A stretch of DNA of 30,445 nucleotides, taken from IMG/VR virus record IMGVR_UViG_3300027753_000065, positions 1 through 30,445 of that record; one strand, written 5' to 3'. Of this stretch, positions 8,941-30,445 are shown in pieces (position 1 is the stretch's first letter; every line of letters begins with the position of its first letter). Made by a program: the position numbers and the translations under genes. The stretch comes from a virus (Duplodnaviria; Caudoviricetes). The notes beneath the pieces were generated by a model. The model searched no databases. It worked only from the letters and a program-made list of their open reading frames with translations, and was not told the origin of the DNA.

Positions 8941-9366
8941 ATGGCAAGATATAAAAACACCGGTGAATACAACTACAAGTATCCCCTCAGAAGGAGAGTC
9001 GCCAACACACTCAAGAAAGTCATCAAGGATGAAGCACTCATCGACACATACACGCTGTATGATTCTGTGCGTATCAATGCCAAGGTGACAACCGAGGGCA
9101 ACATCCGCATCGAAATCCTTGCCGCCTATTATTTTGGGTATCTAAACAACGGCACCGAGAGCATTGCGCCATTCAGATTGGTCAGAAAATTCAATGATGC
9201 ACTCGAGATGAATGGATTGATTGGTGAAATGTATGGAATGTATGTGGCTGATTTGGCTCAGAGATTCCCAATCCTGGAGCTTGGCAATTTATTGCGCAGA
9301 AAGCCCAAGGTGATTTATGACTTTGTGCCGCTATACGGAGATTTCAACTACGCACTGGACTATTAA
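8941..9366 (+). CDS. Putative neck / tail-completion protein
   Basis: 141 aa with a basic N-terminus; IDTYTLYDSVR and YYFGYLNNGT resemble the DTG.L..SI / Y..Y...GT pattern of HK97 gp10-like proteins. Confidence 0.5.
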   Translation: MARYKNTGEYNYKYPLRRRVANTLKKVIKDEALIDTYTLYDSVRINAKVTTEGNIRIEILAAYYFGYLNNGTESIAPFRLVRKFNDALEMNGLIGEMYGMYVADLAQRFPILELGNLLRRKPKVIYDFVPLYGDFNYALDY

Positions 9367-10100
9367 ATCTCCAGCTCCTTTCGCATCGCCAAGAAATTAA
9401 ACACAAGCACGAGCTTCATGTTTATCACCTGGTCATATTTGGTCAGGTCACCATTGCACATGGACCAGATAAGCTGCTCCCATCCCCACTTCTGCGATGA
9501 CTTCTCACGCTCCGCTTCCTTCTTTTCCTCCGGGTCAGTGATGTCATTGACATCTTCACCCACTTGCTCGCTCATTAGATTCTTGTGGCTGGTGATGAAG
9601 CTATCACGGAACTTGATATACTCGGTAAGTACCCCATACATCTTGGTGATTGGTTGGTCGAGGAAGTAATGCACCCGACTTGAGGTCTTGAAATCAGTTG
9701 ACTCCCATTTTGCAACCACATTGTCCTCCACAATTTCAGGGATTCGATACAGCAGAGCGCAGATGTTGGGCAGATACTGAAGGTAGTCAGTGGTGAAGTA
9801 GTGCTCCAGGTCGATGAATTCACCGAGAGTCAGGTCAGTCATTGGCTTGAGATAGAACTTTCCTATCCTATCTGTGTACAATTTGCTCGGCTCAGTGTAG
9901 AGCCACGGCAGCTCCTTGAAGATTTCGCCCACATCTGCGATGTCGATGTCATCGAAGTCATCAGGTAGCCCATCAGTGAGCGTACAGAGGATATCGATGT
10001 TGTGGTTGAATACACCATCCTCACCTTTCAGTTGTCTCAGTTCAATGAACTGCTCAAGACTGACTTGATTCCACCCCTTGGGTAGTGTTGGCTTGGGCAT
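9363..10100 (-). CDS. Hypothetical protein, possible tail assembly chaperone (paralog of 10054..10602)
   Basis: 245 aa, fills an otherwise empty region; LPKGWNQVSLEQFIEL, DLTLGEFIDLE and WGWEQLIWSMCNGDLTKYDQV. Confidence 0.75.
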   Translation of the reverse strand: MPKPTLPKGWNQVSLEQFIELRQLKGEDGVFNHNIDILCTLTDGLPDDFDDIDIADVGEIFKELPWLYTEPSKLYTDRIGKFYLKPMTDLTLGEFIDLEHYFTTDYLQYLPNICALLYRIPEIVEDNVVAKWESTDFKTSSRVHYFLDQPITKMYGVLTEYIKFRDSFITSHKNLMSEQVGEDVNDITDPEEKKEAEREKSSQKWGWEQLIWSMCNGDLTKYDQVINMKLVLVFNFLAMRKELEI

Positions 10101-10602
10101 ATTCAGCGATTTTGTCAGTCACAAAAACAATGTAAGGCACGCACAACTCAGCCTTCTGAGTGCGGAACAACTTTGACTTGTGCTTGAGGTGCGCATCGGT
10201 GAAGTGCTCGGTGTTGGATAGGTCAGCACGTTTGAACATGATGGCCATAACATCACTCAGGTAGTGGTTCGGCTTGGTGTTCACAATCTTCTCGATGAGC
10301 TTGGTCTCTTTGACTGACAGCTTGAGCTGCGCCTCGTATGTGTAGCCATCCATCTCGATTGATGTCACTGCTTCACTTGGTGTGAATGAGTTCAGATTGA
10401 ATTCTTTTATCAGCTCAACAAACTTGCTGAATGGGTAGTCATCCCATAGGCTCTCCTTGATGCCGAGATAGCTGAACATCTCAACATATCTCTCGATGTT
10501 GTCGAAGTCGGGATTGTTTAGGATTTGGCTGATTTTTTCAAACTGCTCGATGGTCAGCTCATTCATTTTGTTAGGAATCTCCTGGTCAAATACTTGTATC
10601 AT
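10054..10602 (-). CDS. Hypothetical protein, possible tail assembly chaperone
   Basis: 182 aa; IPNKMNELTIEQFEKI resembles the N-terminus of the neighbouring ORF; AT-rich start region. Confidence 0.75.
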   Translation of the reverse strand: MIQVFDQEIPNKMNELTIEQFEKISQILNNPDFDNIERYVEMFSYLGIKESLWDDYPFSKFVELIKEFNLNSFTPSEAVTSIEMDGYTYEAQLKLSVKETKLIEKIVNTKPNHYLSDVMAIMFKRADLSNTEHFTDAHLKHKSKLFRTQKAELCVPYIVFVTDKIAEYAQANTTQGVESSQS

Positions 10603-10617
10603 AATTATTGATTTATG

Positions 10618-10644
10618 AACAAAGATACAAATTTTGCAATATAA
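10618..10644 (+). promoter_or_regulatory. Putative phage late promoter AACA-N13-TGCAATATAA
   Basis: Motif lies 2 nt before ATG 10647. Confidence 0.65.
10620..10627 (-). promoter_or_regulatory. Bacteroidota-type -7 box TATCTTTG for the inverted gene pair
   Basis: Matches TAnnTTTG, 17 nt upstream of the minus-strand ATG at 10602; no ideally spaced -33 element. Confidence 0.55.
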
Positions 10645-16460: not shown

Positions 16461-16860
16461 GTCACTATTTTTGCTCATTCTTGTGACAAGTTGCACGGCC
16501 AACTATCACCTCACCAAAGCAATCAAGAAAGGATACCGCTGCGACACCGTAGCTGATACCATCCGCATCACGGCAGTGGACTCTTTTCCGGTCATTGTAG
16601 ACAATAAAATTGTGTATGAATACTATCACACCACCAAGGACACCATCGTGCGTTACAACACATCCTATGTGCCACAAACAAGATGGCAAACTCGCATAGA
16701 ATACAAGCTCAAGCGTGACACCATTCGCCAGGTGCAGAAGATAGAGGTGGCAAAGTACAAATCACAAAAAGATAAGCCCATTTTTTGGGTGCTGATTCTC
16801 GGCTTTGCGATTGGTATGGGTACCATGTACCTCTTCAGATATTCTAAAAACCAAATATGA
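16450..16860 (+). CDS. Lipoprotein with C-terminal TM, putative unimolecular spanin
   Basis: Signal peptide and lipobox (LLILVTS-C16); C-terminal TM IFWVLILGFAIGMGTMYLF. Confidence 0.62.
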   Translation: MNFKSLFLLILVTSCTANYHLTKAIKKGYRCDTVADTIRITAVDSFPVIVDNKIVYEYYHTTKDTIVRYNTSYVPQTRWQTRIEYKLKRDTIRQVQKIEVAKYKSQKDKPIFWVLILGFAIGMGTMYLFRYSKNQI

Positions 16861-17735
16861 TTGTAAAAAAGCACGCCAAGAACATCCACGAGATTCAACT
16901 CGAGGGTGAATTGGTGAAGATTGCCATGCTCTCTGACCTCCACTGGGACAATCCAAAAAGTGACTGGAAGATTCTAAAGCGTGACCTCGACTATTGCCTG
17001 GAGAACAACATCCCCGTGATGATTAATGGTGATATGTTCTGCCTAATGCAAGGCAAGGGTGATCGTAGAGGCAACAAATCTGACATCCGACCAGAGCACA
17101 ACAATGCAAAGTACCTGGATAGTGTGGTTGAGACTGCTGTGGAGTGGTTTCTACCGTATGCCCACATTTTGACTGTCATCGGATACGGCAACCACGAGAC
17201 AGCAATCATCAAGCATCAAGAAACCGACATACTTCAGCGATTCGTGGACCTACTAAACTACAAAGCTGGTAGCAATGTGTTCACTGGAGGGTATGGTGGT
17301 TGGCTTATAGTGAAGCAGCTCTTCAACGGCAATGTGCAGATGACTACCAAAATCAAATACTTTCATGGTTCAGGAGGTGGAGGGGTGGTCACCCGTGGTG
17401 CCATCAACTTGACCAGGGCTTTGGAGATGTATGAGGACTTCGATGTGTTCACGATGGGTCACATACACGAGAACGCAGCTCGCAATGACGTGCGTGACAC
17501 CGTTACCTTCCATTCCAAGACCGGATACAGAAACCATCACAAGGACATTCACCTCATGCTGACCGGTACATATAAGGAAGAGTATGGAGATGGCTCCAAA
17601 GGATGGCACGTTGAGCGTGGTGCTCCAGTGAAGCCAACTGGAGGGCGCATCCTTACCATTGAATGTGGAAGATATGAGGAGGATAAGATGAGAAAAACTG
17701 CAAAGAGTATCGATTCAATCAAATTTCCTTTGTAA
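16857..17735 (+). CDS. Calcineurin-like metallophosphoesterase
   Basis: All five motifs are present: SDLH, NGD, GNHE, FHG, GHIH. Confidence 0.88.
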   Translation: MIVKKHAKNIHEIQLEGELVKIAMLSDLHWDNPKSDWKILKRDLDYCLENNIPVMINGDMFCLMQGKGDRRGNKSDIRPEHNNAKYLDSVVETAVEWFLPYAHILTVIGYGNHETAIIKHQETDILQRFVDLLNYKAGSNVFTGGYGGWLIVKQLFNGNVQMTTKIKYFHGSGGGGVVTRGAINLTRALEMYEDFDVFTMGHIHENAARNDVRDTVTFHSKTGYRNHHKDIHLMLTGTYKEEYGDGSKGWHVERGAPVKPTGGRILTIECGRYEEDKMRKTAKSIDSIKFPL

Positions 17736-17744
17736 CTTTATATC

Positions 17745-17792
17745 CGTATTCATAATACGTTGTTTTGGGGAGCTTTCGGGCTCCCTTTTTTC
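17745..17792 (+). ncRNA. Candidate ~48-nt small RNA (CAU-loop hairpin plus terminator)
   Basis: TAACTTTA (-7-like) at 17733-17740, CGTA-TTCATAA-TACG hairpin at 17745-17759, then a terminator. Expression is unproven. Confidence 0.3.
17767..17792 (+). terminator. Rho-independent terminator ending late region
   Basis: GGGAGCT-TTCG-GGCTCCC followed by a T run. Confidence 0.88.
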
Positions 17793-17992: not shown

Positions 17993-18023
17993 TTTGCAGA
18001 TATGCAAAAGATGTGTATCTTTG
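17993..18023 (+). promoter_or_regulatory. Bacteroidota primary-sigma promoter (early)
   Basis: TTTG (17993-17996), 19-nt spacer, TATCTTTG (18016-18023), with A-tracts upstream; matches the -33/-7 consensus. Confidence 0.85.
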
Positions 18024-18047
18024 TCAGGTAATCAAAAACAAAACAAC

Positions 18048-18224
18048 ATGAAAACAATTAATTACAAAGGTTTCGAAGTAAGTGAAACAACTCAAGAAGG
18101 TGGCGCTACTACAGCAGTAGCTTATTTAAATGGTTCTATGATGTTTGGAACATTTAGTCACCTCGATTCATTAAGCGCAATCGATAAGATGATTGTAAAA
18201 ATTGATAACTACTTAAATAAATAA
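18048..18224 (+). CDS. Hypothetical early protein (58 aa)
   Basis: ATG 18048 follows the promoter and an A-rich leader; the track's TTG start lies within the promoter. Confidence 0.75.
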   Translation: MKTINYKGFEVSETTQEGGATTAVAYLNGSMMFGTFSHLDSLSAIDKMIVKIDNYLNK

Positions 18225-18228
18225 CGTT

Positions 18229-18414
18229 ATGACCAAAGAACAAATCATCGACCTAATCAAAGCCCAAGAGCAAGAGCTGTATGCTGATTTCAAACATTGC
18301 GAAAGGCAATACTGCGTAGAGCATAAGCATACAAGATTTGCATTCGGACAATGGGGTGCATTAGTGAACTTACTTGAAACAATCAAAAACAACGAAAACA
18401 ATGAAAACAATTAA
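18229..18414 (+). CDS. Hypothetical early protein (61 aa)
   Basis: Tightly packed ORF in the early operon. Confidence 0.7.
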   Translation: MTKEQIIDLIKAQEQELYADFKHCERQYCVEHKHTRFAFGQWGALVNLLETIKNNENNENN

Positions 18415-19537: not shown

Positions 19538-20631
19538 GAGTAGGTTCAGACTTCAGTGGTGTAGGAGCATTCAACCAAGCTCTAATGCGTTTAGGAGTAA
19601 ATTACGAAGAAGAGTTTGCCTGTGATATGGATAAATATGCACGAGACACATTCATCCACAACTATGGCGAGCCAAAGTACTATCCAACCAACGTATATGA
19701 CCGAGAGATTCCAACCGACTCACTCGATATTTACATGACATCACCGCCTTGTCAGGCATTCAGCTTGGCTGGAAAGAGACTCGGCAAAGAGGATAAGAGA
19801 GGAATCTTGTTTTTCAACTCACACGAGTTCATTCAGGTAAACAAGCCGAGATTCTTCATATTCGAGAACGTCAAAGGATTGCTCTCTGATGATGGCGGAA
19901 GGACATTCCAGGAGTGGGTGAATATGCTTGGAGGAAAATCAGTCAACGGAGTTCCAGTTCTATTCCCACACGATGACGCAGTTCCATACCATTTGTATTG
20001 GCAAGTTCTCAATGCAAAAAAGCACGGTGTACCGCAGAATCGTGAGCGAGTTTTCTTGATTGGAATCAGAGACGATCAAGACAATAAATTCCAATTCCCA
20101 CGAGAAGAGCATTTGACCAAACTATTGAAGGATGTGCTGGAGCTTGCTGTTGATGATAAGTATTTTTTGAGTGACACTAAAATTGAATATCTATTGAGAA
20201 CAGAAGGAACAACATTTGATGTAAATTCAAAAATTTTAGAAAATGATTTGCCTAATGAATCAAGAACAATTAAATCCGGTTACTGGAAATCAAATAGAGA
20301 TTGTCAATTTTTAAGAATCAAATCAGCCACAACCAAAGGATACGAACAAGCCACTGAAGGTGATTCAATCAATTTAAAAAACATAAACTCAGAAACAAGA
20401 AGAGGAAGAGTCGGAAAGGGAGTCGCACAAACAATCGAATCAAACAACATGAGTCAATTTACACTCAACAAAGGTTCAATCCGCAGACTCACACCAAGAG
20501 AATGCTTCAGATTGATGGACTTCCCAGATACATTCACCTGGAAGGTAAGCGATTCACAAGCATACAAGCAAGCTGGCAACTCAATTGTTGTCAATGTACT
20601 ATATAAAATTTTAAAACAACTACCGTTATGA
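19534..20631 (+). CDS. C5-cytosine DNA methyltransferase (orphan)
   Basis: Motifs I (FSGVG), IV (PPCQ), VI (ENV), VIII (QNRER), IX (RRLTPRECFRLM) and X (YKQAGNS). Confidence 0.95.
   Translation: MRVGSDFSGVGAFNQALMRLGVNYEEEFACDMDKYARDTFIHNYGEPKYYPTNVYDREIPTDSLDIYMTSPPCQAFSLAGKRLGKEDKRGILFFNSHEFIQVNKPRFFIFENVKGLLSDDGGRTFQEWVNMLGGKSVNGVPVLFPHDDAVPYHLYWQVLNAKKHGVPQNRERVFLIGIRDDQDNKFQFPREEHLTKLLKDVLELAVDDKYFLSDTKIEYLLRTEGTTFDVNSKILENDLPNESRTIKSGYWKSNRDCQFLRIKSATTKGYEQATEGDSINLKNINSETRRGRVGKGVAQTIESNNMSQFTLNKGSIRRLTPRECFRLMDFPDTFTWKVSDSQAYKQAGNSIVVNVLYKILKQLPL
20605..20631 (+). repeat. 27-nt direct repeat, copy 1
   Basis: AAAATTTTAAAACAACTACCGTTATGA. Confidence 0.9.
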
Positions 20632-20783
20632 AATGTCCAATGTGTAATGAAGAAATAATAATAGAAGGGAATCACACCTATGAAGAGTATGGAATTGATG
20701 ACCAAATTGGTTATGTATACAATATGACTTGTTACAATGAGGATTGCGATGTTGAGTCAATAATAATATACACAAAATCTTAA
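20628..20783 (+). CDS. 51-aa zinc-ribbon-like protein (MKCPMC...TCYNEDC), not in ORF track
   Basis: CxxC and Cx4C pairs; ATGA-coupled to the methyltransferase. Confidence 0.75.
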   Translation: MKCPMCNEEIIIEGNHTYEEYGIDDQIGYVYNMTCYNEDCDVESIIIYTKS

Positions 20784-20800
20784 AGCAACTACCGTTATGA
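20774..20800 (+). repeat. 27-nt direct repeat, copy 2
   Basis: AAAATCTTAAAGCAACTACCGTTATGA, 25/27 identical to copy 1. Confidence 0.9.
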
Positions 20801-21380: not shown

Positions 21381-21391
21381 GCGTATATTTA
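21381..21391 (+). promoter_or_regulatory. GCGTATATTTA, -7-like promoter element
   Basis: The same 11-mer occurs at 24270-24280; both lie shortly before a replication/recombination gene. Confidence 0.5.
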
Positions 21392-21412
21392 TAGCCCAAC
21401 TAACAACAATTT

Positions 21413-23812
21413 ATGAAAGTTTCAATCTTTAAATCACTATTTAACATTAAAGAAACCCCATTTGAGCTGTCCATTCAGGATGTGTACAACCGCATCAGAC
21501 TCGGCAATCCAGAGCTCATCAAAAAGGTGGCAACAATACGATCACTCGAGAAGGCTGACCCAGAGCATGACCGCCTCAAGTCATCACTGAATGCAATCAT
21601 GTTCAATGGGACATTCACCGAGCGAAATGACAGCAGCCTGGTTGAGCATTCTGGTCTGTGCATCCTGGACTTTGACCAATATCCAACCAAGAAGCTAATG
21701 ATGGATGAACGCAAGCGGCTGATTGCTGACCCCCATGTGATGATGGTGTTCACCTCTCCCAGTGGGAATGGTCTCAAAGCTGTCATTAGAATCCCAAAGT
21801 CTGATAAGGTAGAGCATAAGCGCAGATTCACAGCATTCGGCAAGTACTTCGACAGCGAATACTTCGACACCAAGAATAGCAACGTCAGTCGGGTGTGCTT
21901 TGAATCCTATGACCCTGACATCTACTTCAATGAGTTCTGTCAAGTCTATGAGGGCATCGAGCAAGACCAGGGCTTCAGCTACACCGAGAGAACCCCCACT
22001 TGCATTCTGTCTGATGAGGATAAAATCATCAACCTGATTGAGAAGTTCGACCACGGATGTCGATTTGCCGATGGCAGTCGCAATGAGTTTGTGTTTAAAT
22101 TGGCAGCAGTACTGTGCGAGTATGGCATCAGTAAGGATACAGCAGAGCAGTACATATTCACCAAGTATGCTCAAGGCACCAGCTTCACCGAGCAAGAGAT
22201 GGTGACAACCGTGCGCTCGGCATACAAGAAAGCCTCCTATGGCATCAAGTACTTCGAAGATAAGGATACCTTCCAAAAGGTACGACAGAAGCTCAAGAGT
22301 GGTGTGGCTGACCATGACATCAAGAAACAGCTGAACGTGCGAGAGGATGTCATTGAGGACATAAAAAAAGAGATACAAACAGGTGATGATATCTTCTGGT
22401 CAGTCAATGAGAAGGGTGGCATCACGATTCAGCCATCAAATTACGCTGAATTCTTGGTCAAGAACGGATTCAACAAGTACTATCCTGAGAATGCTGAGAA
22501 GCCAACCTTTGTGAGAGTCAAAGAAAACAAGGTCAGAATATCATCAGCAGAACAAATCAAGGACTTTGTGCTTACCTATCTGCAAGGAAAGGGTGAGATG
22601 GATGTGTGGAACTACTGCTCGAGGAATGCGTTTCTCTTTAATGAGAACTTCATAAATATGATTGACAGTATCAACATACTGATGCTTCAGGATAGCAAGA
22701 GCTCCTCATACATCCCATTCAAGAATGGAGTGGCCAAGATATCTAAGAGCAAAGTGGAGCTCAAGAGCTACATCGATGTGGATGGCTATATCTGGGAGAA
22801 TCAAATCATCGACAGAGATTTCACCAAGCTGGATGACTGCACAAATGACTTCCAAGATTTCGTTAGCAAGGTATCAGCAGATGACAGCGGAAGAGTCGAT
22901 GCACTGGAGACAACCCTTGGCTACCTGATGCACACATTCAAAGACAAGACTGACCAAAAGGCAATCATATTCAATGACCAAGAAATCGATGACAACCCGA
23001 ATGGAGGCTCAGGTAAGTCACTGATGTTGGCAGCACTGAACAATCTGCGCAGAGTGGTCAAGATAGATGGCAAGAGCTTCAACCCATCAAAGTCTGATTT
23101 CGTTTATCAGCGAGTGAACCTGGACACTCAGATACTTGCATTCGATGACGTAAGAAAGGCATTCGACTTCGAGCAGCTCTTCAGCCTCATCACAGAGGGA
23201 ATCACCGTGAATCGAAAGAATAAGGATGAGATTTTTATCCCATTCAACCGCTCACCCAAGATTGTCATCACCACCAACTATGTCATCAGTGGTGCTGGCT
23301 CTTCTCATGATCGCAGAAGGCATGAGCTGGAGTTCTATCAGTACTTCCATTCCAAGCGCAGCCCACTTGATGAGTATGGTCGCCTATTATTCGACTCCTG
23401 GGCAGATGAGGATTGGCTCAAGTTCGACAACTACATGGTCAAGAACCTACAAAAGTACCTGACAAATGGATTGATGAAAGCCATCAGCATCAACGCAGAT
23501 GCCAAGCGACTCATCCAGGCAACTTGCAAAGATTTCTTTGATTGGGCTGAAGAGGGCAACCTCGCTCTGGATGTGTACTACTACAACGGAACCAAGATAC
23601 AAGAATTCATTTCCGAATTTACCTCATTCAAGGAGCTCGAGCCACGCAGATTCCTGAAATGGGTGCAGTCGTATGCCGATTATAAAGGCTATAATGTCAC
23701 CAAAGGTCGCAATCACAACGGCAGATATTTCATTCTCGATTCGGGAACTGCCAAACCGACTCCAGAATCTGATGATATTTGGGATGAACTAAACGAAAAA
23801 GCGAAACAATGA
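21413..23812 (+). CDS. Primase-helicase (BT4734/VirE_N-like N-terminus, PriCT, SF3-type P-loop helicase)
   Basis: SGLCILDFD, FTSPSGNGLK and SRVCFESYD; GSRNEFVFKLA; Walker A GGSGKS; Walker B LAFDD; motif C IVITTN. Confidence 0.9.
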   Translation: MKVSIFKSLFNIKETPFELSIQDVYNRIRLGNPELIKKVATIRSLEKADPEHDRLKSSLNAIMFNGTFTERNDSSLVEHSGLCILDFDQYPTKKLMMDERKRLIADPHVMMVFTSPSGNGLKAVIRIPKSDKVEHKRRFTAFGKYFDSEYFDTKNSNVSRVCFESYDPDIYFNEFCQVYEGIEQDQGFSYTERTPTCILSDEDKIINLIEKFDHGCRFADGSRNEFVFKLAAVLCEYGISKDTAEQYIFTKYAQGTSFTEQEMVTTVRSAYKKASYGIKYFEDKDTFQKVRQKLKSGVADHDIKKQLNVREDVIEDIKKEIQTGDDIFWSVNEKGGITIQPSNYAEFLVKNGFNKYYPENAEKPTFVRVKENKVRISSAEQIKDFVLTYLQGKGEMDVWNYCSRNAFLFNENFINMIDSINILMLQDSKSSSYIPFKNGVAKISKSKVELKSYIDVDGYIWENQIIDRDFTKLDDCTNDFQDFVSKVSADDSGRVDALETTLGYLMHTFKDKTDQKAIIFNDQEIDDNPNGGSGKSLMLAALNNLRRVVKIDGKSFNPSKSDFVYQRVNLDTQILAFDDVRKAFDFEQLFSLITEGITVNRKNKDEIFIPFNRSPKIVITTNYVISGAGSSHDRRRHELEFYQYFHSKRSPLDEYGRLLFDSWADEDWLKFDNYMVKNLQKYLTNGLMKAISINADAKRLIQATCKDFFDWAEEGNLALDVYYYNGTKIQEFISEFTSFKELEPRRFLKWVQSYADYKGYNVTKGRNHNGRYFILDSGTAKPTPESDDIWDELNEKAKQ

Positions 23813-24267: not shown

Positions 24268-24280
24268 AAGCGTATATTTA
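24248..24280 (+). promoter_or_regulatory. Putative Bacteroidota-type promoter
   Basis: TTTG (24248-24251), 21-nt spacer, TATATTTA (24273-24280). Confidence 0.55.
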
Positions 24281-24307
24281 CAATTCAAAACAACAAAAAC
24301 AACAATT

Positions 24308-24841
24308 ATGACTACAAAAAAAGCGGAGGCTACACTCGCAGAGCCAATGAACATTTGGCAAAAATTGCACGCTGCCAAGCAGCAAATCGGAAAGGTTGCT
24401 AAGAATGCAACGAATCCACATTTCAAAAAGAGCTATGCTGACATCAATGCGCTGCTCACAACGGTGGAGCCTATTCTCCACGAGCATGGACTGCTACTCT
24501 TGCAGCCAGTGGTTGGCAATGATGTGGTGACTCGTATCATCGATATCGACTCTGGTGAGATAATCGAGTCATTCATGAGCCTTCCAGTCATCACAGACCC
24601 CCAAAAGGTGCTCGCTGCCGTCACTTATTTCAGAAGAGGTACTTTGCAGTCACTGCTATCACTTCAAGCCGTAGATGATGATGGCAATGGTGCAGCAGAT
24701 TCACAGAAAGGAAAGCCAACGATTAATGCAGAGCGATTCAAATCAGCACTCGAATCAATCGAAGCTGGAAAGTACACAGCACAGCAGTTGGCCACCAACT
24801 ATGCACTCACTGAAGCTCAATCTAAAATGCTCGCACTATGA
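24308..24841 (+). CDS. erf: ERF-family single-strand annealing protein
   Basis: KNATNPHFKKSYADI and AAVTYFRRGTLQSLL...DDDGN; start set at ATG 24308. Confidence 0.85.
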   Translation: MTTKKAEATLAEPMNIWQKLHAAKQQIGKVAKNATNPHFKKSYADINALLTTVEPILHEHGLLLLQPVVGNDVVTRIIDIDSGEIIESFMSLPVITDPQKVLAAVTYFRRGTLQSLLSLQAVDDDGNGAADSQKGKPTINAERFKSALESIEAGKYTAQQLATNYALTEAQSKMLAL

Positions 24842-26358: not shown

Positions 26359-26459
26359 GACCTGACCAAGAATACTGCGCAGCACTCGCCACGATGATAC
26401 TCGTGACCACAGTGGCTATCATATTGATTTTTAAACTTATCTTTGACGTATGGAACTGA
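26355..26459 (+). CDS. 34-aa membrane peptide, not in ORF track
   Basis: MRPDQEYCAALATMILVTTVAIILIFKLIFDVWN; ATGA-coupled. Confidence 0.55.
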   Translation: MRPDQEYCAALATMILVTTVAIILIFKLIFDVWN

Positions 26460-28456: not shown

Positions 28457-29617
28457 ATGGCTGAAATCACAATCGACAGCACTGTCATCTTCGAGAAAAA
28501 CTTCACAGCCCTGGTTGACCCGAGCATCAGGTTCATCATCAATGAGGGTGGCAGCCGATCCAGCAAGACCTACTCGCTCTGCCAAATGATCGTGGTGTAC
28601 TGCTTGCAGAATCCTGGCAAGGTGGTCAGCATCGTTCGCAAGACCTTCCCAGCTCTCAGGGCAACGGTGATGCGTGACTTCTTTGAAATCATGAAGGAGA
28701 TGGAGATTTATGAGGTGAGCAGCCACAACAAGTCAGAGCACATCTACACCTTCCCGAATGGAAGCATCGTGGAGTTCTTCAGCGTGGATGATGAGCAGAA
28801 GATACGAGGGCGCAAGCGTGACCTTGGTTGGTGCAATGAAGCCAATGAGCTGTGGTTCGAAGATTTTCAGCAGCTGAACATGAGGACCGAGACAAAGCTC
28901 ATCTTCGACTACAACCCGAGTGAGAGTGCATCCTGGTTGTATGAGCTGCCGATGGATGAAAGCATCATCATCAAGTCAACCTACAAAGACAACCCATTCC
29001 TTCCCGAAAGCATCAAGCGTCAGATTGAGGACCTCAAGCGCACCGATGAGTCGCTGTATCAAATCTATGCGCTCGGTGAGAAAGCCATCAGCAAGAGCAA
29101 CATCTATTCGAACTGGTCATTCGTGAAGCATCGCCCAGCAAGGTTCGTGAACTTTGTGTATGGGCTCGACTTCGGATACAATCACCCGACTGCCCTCATC
29201 AGGGTCTACTATTGCGACAATGACATCTACATCGAGCCGGTCATATACGAGAGCTACCTGACAACCACCAACCTCATCGACAAGATTGGCAACCTCAACA
29301 TCGAGAAGCACGTCACCATCGTGGCTGACTACGCACGGCCCGAGATAATCGCTGAGATGAATAACGCTGGCTATGATGTGCGAAACGCCAACAAGGTGGT
29401 CAAGAAGGGCATCGACAACATCAAGACCTTTGGAGTGGTGTGCGAGGATGAGCCAAGACTCAAGAAAGAATACGAGAACTACAAGTGGAAAAAGGTGGGT
29501 GACCAAATCATGGATGAGCCCGTGAAGCTGTACGATGATGCCATGGATGCCATCCGCTACGCTGCCACGCACATACGCCAGGAGTACTATACGGATGACT
29601 CATATTTCGCCTTCTAA
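28457..29617 (+). CDS. terL: Terminase large subunit (PBSX/SPP1-like family)
   Basis: Walker A EGGSRSSKT, Walker B GWCNEANE, DYNP, GLDFG and DDAMDAIRYA. Confidence 0.95.
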   Translation: MAEITIDSTVIFEKNFTALVDPSIRFIINEGGSRSSKTYSLCQMIVVYCLQNPGKVVSIVRKTFPALRATVMRDFFEIMKEMEIYEVSSHNKSEHIYTFPNGSIVEFFSVDDEQKIRGRKRDLGWCNEANELWFEDFQQLNMRTETKLIFDYNPSESASWLYELPMDESIIIKSTYKDNPFLPESIKRQIEDLKRTDESLYQIYALGEKAISKSNIYSNWSFVKHRPARFVNFVYGLDFGYNHPTALIRVYYCDNDIYIEPVIYESYLTTTNLIDKIGNLNIEKHVTIVADYARPEIIAEMNNAGYDVRNANKVVKKGIDNIKTFGVVCEDEPRLKKEYENYKWKKVGDQIMDEPVKLYDDAMDAIRYAATHIRQEYYTDDSYFAF

Positions 29618-29644
29618 ACATTTGGCTGACAATTTGCAATATAA
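29617..29644 (+). promoter_or_regulatory. Putative late promoter, allele of 716..743
   Basis: AACA and TGCAATATAA are unchanged while the spacer differs (TTTGGCTGACAATT vs TTTGGCTCACTTTC). Confidence 0.7.
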
Positions 29645-29646
29645 GC

Positions 29647-30445
29647 ATGGCATTTAGAACACAGAAGATATCCCAGATGACTCCGAAGGGAGCCGACTTG
29701 GAAGCAACCGACCTCATCGAGGTATCCACGCTGGAGAGTGGAAGCTACGTCACACGATCAATCACGGGTCAAGAACTCATTGACGCTATTCCGTTACCGC
29801 CTTCAGGCTTAACAGTCGGCACTACCCCGATAGCTTCGGGTACTGCTGGTCGTGTATTGTTTGAGGGTACGGGCAACGTGCTTCAGGAAAGTGCAAACTT
29901 GTTTTGGGATAACACGAATGCAAGGTTAGGGATTGGTACGAGTACGCCTAGTGCTTCAGTTCATTCAGCGGGTTCGGTAAATGGTTCTTTTAGTTCTTTA
30001 TTTCAAAACACTTCAACGGGAATTCAAGGTAGCACTGGAATAAATGTAGCAAATAATTCAGCCACAATAGGTGGTGTATCAACTTATTCATCGGCTAATA
30101 ATACTGCATATCTTCGAAGTAATGTTGTTTTAGCTTCATATCCAACTGCGAGTAATGTATTACTTGCAACTAATTTTGACGTAGCAACGGGTGGAACTGG
30201 AAGCATTCAATTACTAACGGGTGGCTATGCTGGTAACCCTACCAAAATGATTGTGTTTGGAACTACGGGCAATGTACTAATTCAAAACGGAGGAACACAC
30301 ACCGATGCAGGCTTCCGTTTAGACGTCAATGGTACTGCGAGGGTGCAGGATAATTTTACTATTGCCAAAACAACGGCTTCAGCTTTGACTGTTAATTTAA
30401 CATCTTTAGTTGCACAAAATAATTTTCTAAATATCTTGAATGGTA
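29647..30445 (+). CDS. Tail fibre allele B, 3'-truncated by window edge
   Basis: Same N-terminus as 746..1981, open to the end of the window, with a different first module. Confidence 0.85.
   Translation, partial: MAFRTQKISQMTPKGADLEATDLIEVSTLESGSYVTRSITGQELIDAIPLPPSGLTVGTTPIASGTAGRVLFEGTGNVLQESANLFWDNTNARLGIGTSTPSASVHSAGSVNGSFSSLFQNTSTGIQGSTGINVANNSATIGGVSTYSSANNTAYLRSNVVLASYPTASNVLLATNFDVATGGTGSIQLLTGGYAGNPTKMIVFGTTGNVLIQNGGTHTDAGFRLDVNGTARVQDNFTIAKTTASALTVNLTSLVAQNNFLNILNG

Follow-up and report, generated by a model that had tools for sequence, protein, structure and literature searches.

A conserved candidate small RNA gene with a seed complementary to early gene starts in a phage of Bacteroidota-type bacteria

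The window, i.e., the whole stretch of DNA analysed, comprises the 30,445 bases of a virus record that carries terminase, capsid, endolysin-like, primase/helicase, ERF and methylase genes. Judging by its sequence, it is a phage of about 29 kb of Bacteroidota-type bacteria: A-rich starts without Shine-Dalgarno motifs, together with TAnnTTTG boxes before several units, point to a Bacteroidota host, and Bacteroidota, to our knowledge, lack Shine-Dalgarno sequences. The phosphoesterase, our anchor gene, has 476 relatives in IMG/VR; four of its six relatives in genome collections lie in records titled Flavobacterium or Flavobacteriaceae; as these are binned contigs, they make such a host of the window a putative one. 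Among annotated phages none is close (the phosphoesterase has one 35% match, the capsid none). The two ends of the record, 1-750 and 28902-29650, are redundant, and the two copies, which cover the terminase end and the tail-fibre start, differ in sequence, which suggests two strains in one assembly.

The element under study occupies 17733-17792; the late/lysis block lies before it and the first early promoter box (18016) after it. Its features and the gene before it are as follows.

16857-17735, plus strand: calcineurin-like phosphoesterase gene (phrog_7339, E 1e-16; PF00149 on homologs)
17733-17740, plus strand: -7 box variant TAACTTTA of the Bacteroidota sigma-A type, predicted small-RNA promoter (conservation in relatives)
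17745-17791, plus strand: predicted small RNA of about 46-47 nt, with the start placed at the fifth to sixth base past the box
17745-17759, plus strand: weak 5' hairpin exposing CAU, CGTA-TTCATAA-TACG (-2 kcal/mol; closest lineage only)
17749-17766, plus strand: U-rich CAU seed antisense to A/C-rich leaders and AUG (sequence, shuffles, covariation)
17767-17791, plus strand: intrinsic terminator (stem 17767-17786, T-run to 17791)

The phosphoesterase is the last gene of the late/lysis block, and the TAA inside TAACTTTA is its stop codon, which thereby provides the TA of the box. Direct reading of the sequence found every part that the first-pass annotation had listed: the -7-like box, the hairpin, TTGTTTT (17760-17766) and the strong terminator. 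Its remark that a -33 box is absent also holds, TTG at a spacer of 17-21 occurring in just 18 of 105 relatives. The 60-mer folds with z = -3.7, nearly all of it due to the terminator; the best fold of the small hairpin has 6 bp and a CAU triloop, not a 7-nt loop.

According to the accessible part of PMC9723704, the -7 box of Flavobacterium psychrophilum sits at -12 to -5. This spacing places +1 at 17745-17746 and thus predicts an RNA of about 46 nt. Applied to the TATCTTTG box at 26438 (26438-26452), it puts +1 on the ATG of gene 26450, whose transcript is predicted to be leaderless and sigma-A dependent, with a similar arrangement in relatives. Two RNA runs (contigs only, small shares) cover only bits of early genes and leave the element uncovered.

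Conservation was studied behind the phosphoesterase. The first sample consisted of the best 80 of the 476 IMG/VR relatives (79 usable, one incomplete), to which 80 more distant loci and six from genome contigs were added; 104 distinct 3' sequences were left after partial matches, short 3' flanks and duplicates had been removed. A terminator is present in 63 of the 104, and the box TAnnTT[TAC][GA] accompanies it in 62 of these 63, being on the stop in 53. Where no terminator was called, the box is on the stop in 3/41, and these three exceptions have long-loop terminators that the call had missed. Since the box pattern had been set on the first-sample data, it was retested out of sample, on at least 238 loci found by the last codons of the protein only (at least 207 confirmed as the same gene). 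Among the matches listed, the new terminator-bearing sequences have the box anywhere in 70/71 cases and on the stop in 64/71; those without a terminator, again among the matches listed, have it on the stop in 1/11 and some box within 45 nt in 11/11, a frequent occurrence at such loci that speaks against the promoter reading.

Pooling all terminator-bearing elements among the matches listed gives the box in 132/134, with positions 5-8 kept. It persists through a change between TAA and TAG, sits off the stop in some lineages and is also found behind unrelated upstream sequence; terminator stems are exchanged between relatives while the CAU-containing U-rich core stays. By sequence and conservation only, the element thus has the promoter and terminator of its own that belong to the class of trans-acting anti-start small RNAs. 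The layout and its conservation are observations, and transcription and its start point are predictions from them.

The first-pass annotation had left open whether this is a small RNA or a 3' fragment of the late mRNA. In the latter case the pairing described below would be the same, the RNA would be the late-mRNA 3' end (whole or cut by an RNase) shutting off early genes late, and the box would be incidental. We see several points in favour of this: the element stands where the late block ends, the TA of the box is part of a stop codon, a -33 box is lacking, and in families B and D second seed-like copies precede the tail-gene terminator without a canonical box. However, box positions 5-8 are kept in 132/134 elements (among the matches listed) whether after TAA or TAG, and the box relocates off the stop and is missing at the stop where the terminator is absent. 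A promoter of its own is, on this sequence evidence, better supported than a pure fragment, and we consider the fragment explanation unlikely.

The seed was compared in 97 distinct single strands (14-57 nt after the box) pooled from the 134 elements among the matches listed. CAT is present in 81 of the 97; in 1000 shuffles the mean was 29.4 and the maximum 42. The first-pass annotation had suggested looking for a conserved TTCAT-plus-terminator element behind the lysis genes. Seed families were defined by seed sequence. Within families A-C (26 distinct seeds, read off the list) the core changes are C>U and A>G, both compatible with G.U pairing; two family-D variants break pairing. The 5' hairpin is confined to the closest lineage (79 loci from the best 80 of 476 relatives). 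In Rfam scans, the region and 17 related loci had no matches beyond terminator-like ones below the threshold.

Some related arrangements were noted in passing. In six genomes (G012, G013, G014, G023, G025, G026) the tail-gene terminator is directly preceded by another stretch resembling the seed (TTCATAGTTGTG or TTTCATA..CGTTAA), which lacks a canonical -7 box; the window has no such stretch. A variant behind the phosphoesterase (L273, L277, L288, L291, L320, L329) combines a -7 box with a 5' hairpin whose loop is of the GUAUUA type and a terminator with a U-rich long loop, and longer units (L309, L321, L324, L531, L564, L587, L551) have two CAU seeds in tandem. At L275, L553, L572 and L606 a different conserved non-coding stretch, beginning with GTCAGTTGGCGTAATGAAG past a promoter-like box, follows the phosphoesterase and is possibly a structured RNA. 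A pattern scan for seed-terminator units in other phages found a real hairpin at 67/93 loci, many of them in phosphoesterase-linked families. A seed with a strong terminator is also seen in further phage records (L421, L405, L354, L417, L351, L410, L355, L359, L380), some of which have a TATATTTG box further upstream; their own-genome pairing ranks are mixed. An unconstrained seed-plus-terminator scan gave 120 loci, mostly chance.

The predicted targets and the early promoter boxes in the window are listed below. Net energies count the opening costs and require a helix over the AUG.

18016-18023, plus strand: -7 box TATCTTTG of the first early unit (sequence)
18040-18055, plus strand: target at the start of the first early gene, 18048 (net -5.8 kcal/mol; covariation across families)
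18218-18232, plus strand: target at the start of gene 18229 (hybrid -11.1, net -4.6 kcal/mol)
18386-18408, plus strand: target at the start of gene 18401 (net -8.7 kcal/mol)
20613-20635, plus strand: target at the start of gene 20628 (net -5.8 kcal/mol)
20782-20800, plus strand: target at the start of gene 20797, DnaA-type HTH below the Pfam cut-off (net -5.3 kcal/mol)
21384-21391 and 21402-21417, plus strand: box TATATTTA and target of the primase/helicase gene (net -7.2 kcal/mol; phrog_18375)
24273-24280 and 24296-24315, plus strand: box TATATTTA and target of the ERF ssDNA-annealing gene (net -11.4 kcal/mol, rank 1; phrog_2324)

The reverse complement of 17749-17766 had been said to resemble four start regions, and it does so at 21402, 24296, 18040 and 18218. 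The eight best accessible start sites in the window all belong to early genes, the eighth being the start of gene 23809 (net -4.3 kcal/mol). A net energy of -5.3 kcal/mol is reached by 6/20 early starts, 0/21 late starts and 13/644 internal ATGs. By hybrid energy six early genes are at the top among start sites, and the early mean is -9.05 (n=19) against -6.12 for late genes (n=23; p 3e-4); with hybrid energy alone, 14 internal-ATG windows are stronger than the best start. The comparison with shuffled controls, also suggested in the first-pass annotation, favours the seed: its top-5 mean is matched by 6/500 plain shuffles and 15/500 that keep CAT.

A -7 box stands 25-35 bases upstream of gene 18048, the primase and ERF in the window; in relatives it is found before ERF in 21/23 and before the primase in 9/13 cases; four control genes have it in 1-3 of 13-23. 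The primase and ERF boxes share the TAnnTTTA form with the small-RNA box. Four late genes begin 2-5 bases past the motif TGCAATATAA, which is likely, judging by its position, a late promoter giving leaderless mRNAs; the starts so close to it are consistent with such mRNAs. The motif was noted 2-5 bases before ATG at 734, 8928, 10635, 13228 and 29635; at 10635 it is back to back with a TATCTTTG box at 10627, and a two-gene minus-strand unit lies inside the late block at 9363-10602. For gene 26867, a candidate regulator, no family match exceeds the cut-off.

Between lineages, seed and leaders vary together. For six families the pairing of the seed family with its own ERF start, 6.5 kb away, is the best of 720 permutations, whereas the control genes rank 701/720 (exonuclease) and 31/120 (capsid); the choice of ERF followed its top rank in the window, families E and F are represented by one genome each, and the families are related rather than independent, so that these permutation counts are not strict probabilities. 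Among all called starts ERF is first in 12/24 genomes and within ranks 1-4 in 22/24; the simple caller used for relatives recovers 32/38 of the curated window starts. With the first downstream early gene (the 77 loci where it could be called, eight families) the own-family pairing is equalled or bettered by 332 of 40,320 permutations when scored by energy and by 665 when scored by perfect match. The match between seed and ERF leader runs over AACAATTATGA in family B, ACGCTATG in family D and CACTATGAAA in family F. At one family-D gene start the complementarity to the seed is perfect over 17 bases, and AACGCTATG, the complement of the family-D seed, begins 7/49 early genes in D versus 1/392 in A-C.

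Complementarity to start regions is thus above chance and covaries with the targets, some tests being weaker. Ranked by energy over whole genomes, the own genome comes 1st-3rd of 18 for seven short-seed groups; by perfect 8-nt match it is 12th, 14th and 10th of 18 for families A, B and C. The longer seeds (F, G, I, J, K) give energy ranks of 5-14.5, and when phages without the phosphoesterase anchor are taken with them the ranks run from 1st to 17th. An early-versus-late preference at p <= 0.05 is seen in 6/7 family-A, 4/5 family-B and 0/5 family-C genomes. If the RNA starts at the fifth base past the box, many family-D RNAs miss part of CAU; in this trimmed form the family did not pass the shuffle test that requires pairing over the AUG (25 and 63 of 100), and it did pass when two bases were added at the 5' end and the pairing rule was relaxed (0/200 in three genomes, 12/200 in G022). 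The outcome for family D depends on the position of the RNA start.

The first-pass annotation proposed that leadered A-rich AUG regions would be blocked in the phage early genes or in the host. Conservation, covariation and the sparing of late genes support the phage part. The host part found no support in Flavobacterium: the target motif has 46 matches in 21 genomes of the genus versus 41 for a control pattern, i.e., no enrichment, and the family B/C pattern was not found in 151 genomes of Flavobacterium (the genus of G051) or in three MAGs.

The complementarity would also be compatible with an RNA acting mainly through a protein, as a sponge for an RNA-binding protein like RbpB, or stabilising or activating its target mRNAs rather than repressing them. 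The pairing energies are modest, and FopS RNAs, which have a similar U-rich anti-AUG seed, bind RbpB (PMC11697453, accessible part). On the other hand, the lineage-specific covariation of the seed with the phage's own leaders points to base pairing, and pairing over AUG and the A-rich enhancer positions (PMC7366714, as far as its available text goes) predicts blocking. We regard a protein-mediated or activating role as improbable.

The match could, further, belong to the DNA as an inverted copy of a repeated gene-start motif, acting as an operator or as one side of a segment that can invert around the early promoter. The seed does form an imperfect inverted repeat with the start of the first early gene, 150-400 bp away; yet the best partner is 6.5 kb away, the core changes in families A-C are of the G.U type, the motif is enclosed by a promoter box and a terminator, no inverted arrangement occurs among the 3' sequences inspected, and no PF00589 tyrosine recombinase was found in the five genomes searched (nor was an integrase). 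This possibility appears very improbable to us.

Two further ideas of the first-pass annotation can be set aside. A tRNA anticodon arm has a 5-bp stem, a conserved 7-nt loop and an invariant CAU. A mimic of the tRNA-Met anticodon loop that decoys anticodon nucleases such as VapC is hardly credible here: UUCAUAA is closed by 4 bp in the window and the closest relatives, but a 5-bp stem occurs in 0/97 seeds and a 4-bp one in 10/97, all of family A, YUCAUR is present in 44/97 and lacking in 53/97, CAU becomes CGU or UAU in relatives, the predicted fold is the CAU triloop at -2 kcal/mol, and there is no tRNA call. We give next to no credit to the seed being the start of a small minus-strand gene, as the 12-codon frame with its strong-looking A-rich start region does exist in the window, but neither frame nor length is conserved (115 elements among the matches listed are spread over three registers, 73/26/16, with 1-71 codons) and the ATG is lost in 16/97 seeds.

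We believe that the stretch is probably a real, conserved and functional gene of an anti-start small RNA. As it mirrors early start regions and changes together with them from lineage to lineage, it likely gives rise to an RNA of about 46 bases. With a probability of roughly 0.7, in our estimate, the element is the gene of a trans-acting small RNA of about 46 nt, transcribed from a host sigma-A -7 box placed on the late stop codon, that pairs with early leaders and their AUG and damps their translation. The host sigma-A polymerase would produce the RNA from injection onward, and the terminator hairpin would stabilise it. Its seed would cover the A-rich positions and AUG of early mRNAs and so block initiation, mainly at the heads of early units (the first early gene, primase/helicase and ERF) and at a few small genes; once the leading gene of an early unit is blocked, expression of the coupled genes downstream would presumably fall as well. 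Late genes, whose pairing is poor, would escape, and late transcripts, ending at the same terminator, could add more seed later in infection. Complementarity and covariation are what we observe; repression and its timing are predicted from them. The likeliest role, on this model, would be negative feedback on early replication and recombination functions, to limit them or to time them.

It is tempting to go further, although we consider the following doubtful as a whole: in integrase-less phages of Bacteroidota the early programme would be governed not by a protein repressor but by one master RNA of 35-60 nt, transcribed by the host polymerase, that silences every early operon at its head. Such an RNA would set the moment of the early-to-late switch, keep a carrier state without integration quiet and shut out related phages that superinfect, and co-evolution of seed and leaders would produce RNA-defined immunity groups. 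The element presents a natural case of coevolution at a distance between a small RNA and its targets in an abundant group of uncultured phages. It suggests how one very small RNA could switch off several early operons in hosts without Shine-Dalgarno sequences and, if true, would give a compact design rule for translational silencing in Bacteroidota.

An RNA of a phage that represses its own early genes in trans is known from P4 (CI RNA). The C4 antisense RNA of phages P1/P7 (RF01695; PMC8198154, accessible part) likewise represses the phage's own early genes in trans; it is structured and serves one antirepressor operon of a temperate phage, whereas the seed here is unstructured and fits several early starts. 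The C4 model matched 0/5 genomes at E <= 1. In the csRNAs of the Streptococcus CiaRH regulon (PMC3091779, in the text available) an unpaired anti-start-codon CAU, present in 53/61 of them, is predicted to block initiation, as here; these RNAs are chromosomal and have two stem-loops and an anti-Shine-Dalgarno part, while the present seed covers an A/C-rich leader. The short RNA StxS of lambdoid phages (PR'-tR'), according to the accessible part of PMC7547250, is a short promoter-to-terminator phage transcript with a small-RNA function, as we predict for the window; it is a by-product of late antitermination preceding late genes, and here the downstream early genes have a promoter of their own. 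In the literature searched, with most subscription papers outside it, we came across no RNA of a Bacteroidota phage described as targeting the phage's own early start codons; one FopS copy has been noted in a phage (PMC11697453, accessible part), which may bear on the novelty of the element.

The closest likeness is to FopS (RF04319) and GibS (RF04182) of Bacteroides thetaiotaomicron, for which we rely on the available portions of PMC11697453 and PMC7366714. Both repress by pairing at start codons, typically that of the first gene of a polycistron, and A-rich positions together with AUG drive initiation in Bacteroidota (PMC7366714). Both have a single-stranded 5' part followed by an intrinsic terminator, as the window element does, and promoters of the sigma-A type, as predicted here; FopS also has a U-rich seed with TTCATA (consensus in PMC11697453). 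At E <= 10 neither the FopS model (gathering score 56 bits; above the cut-off in one named genome, our control) nor the GibS model, with its two seeds R1 and R2, matches the window genome (G000). A FopS-like element of 28.6 bits, below the 56-bit cut-off, was seen in a 78-kb phage (G037:C1:50677-50752, L744), which also has a short TTCATAATTGTT-terminator unit (L357). With the 35-nt seed consensus of FopS R1' the window seed shares, in the text available, the TTCATA core only. FopS comes as multicopy paralogues, whereas the window has one seed-plus-terminator copy (some relatives have a second, box-less one), and the predicted size is about 46 nt versus 71 and 142 model positions for FopS and GibS. 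As far as the accessible descriptions allow a comparison, the element also differs from both in its promoter box, which overlaps a stop codon, in its predicted targets, which are the replication and early genes of the phage itself, and in its seed, which is retuned in each lineage. By analogy, we presume that the window element works like FopS and GibS while not being a member of either family.
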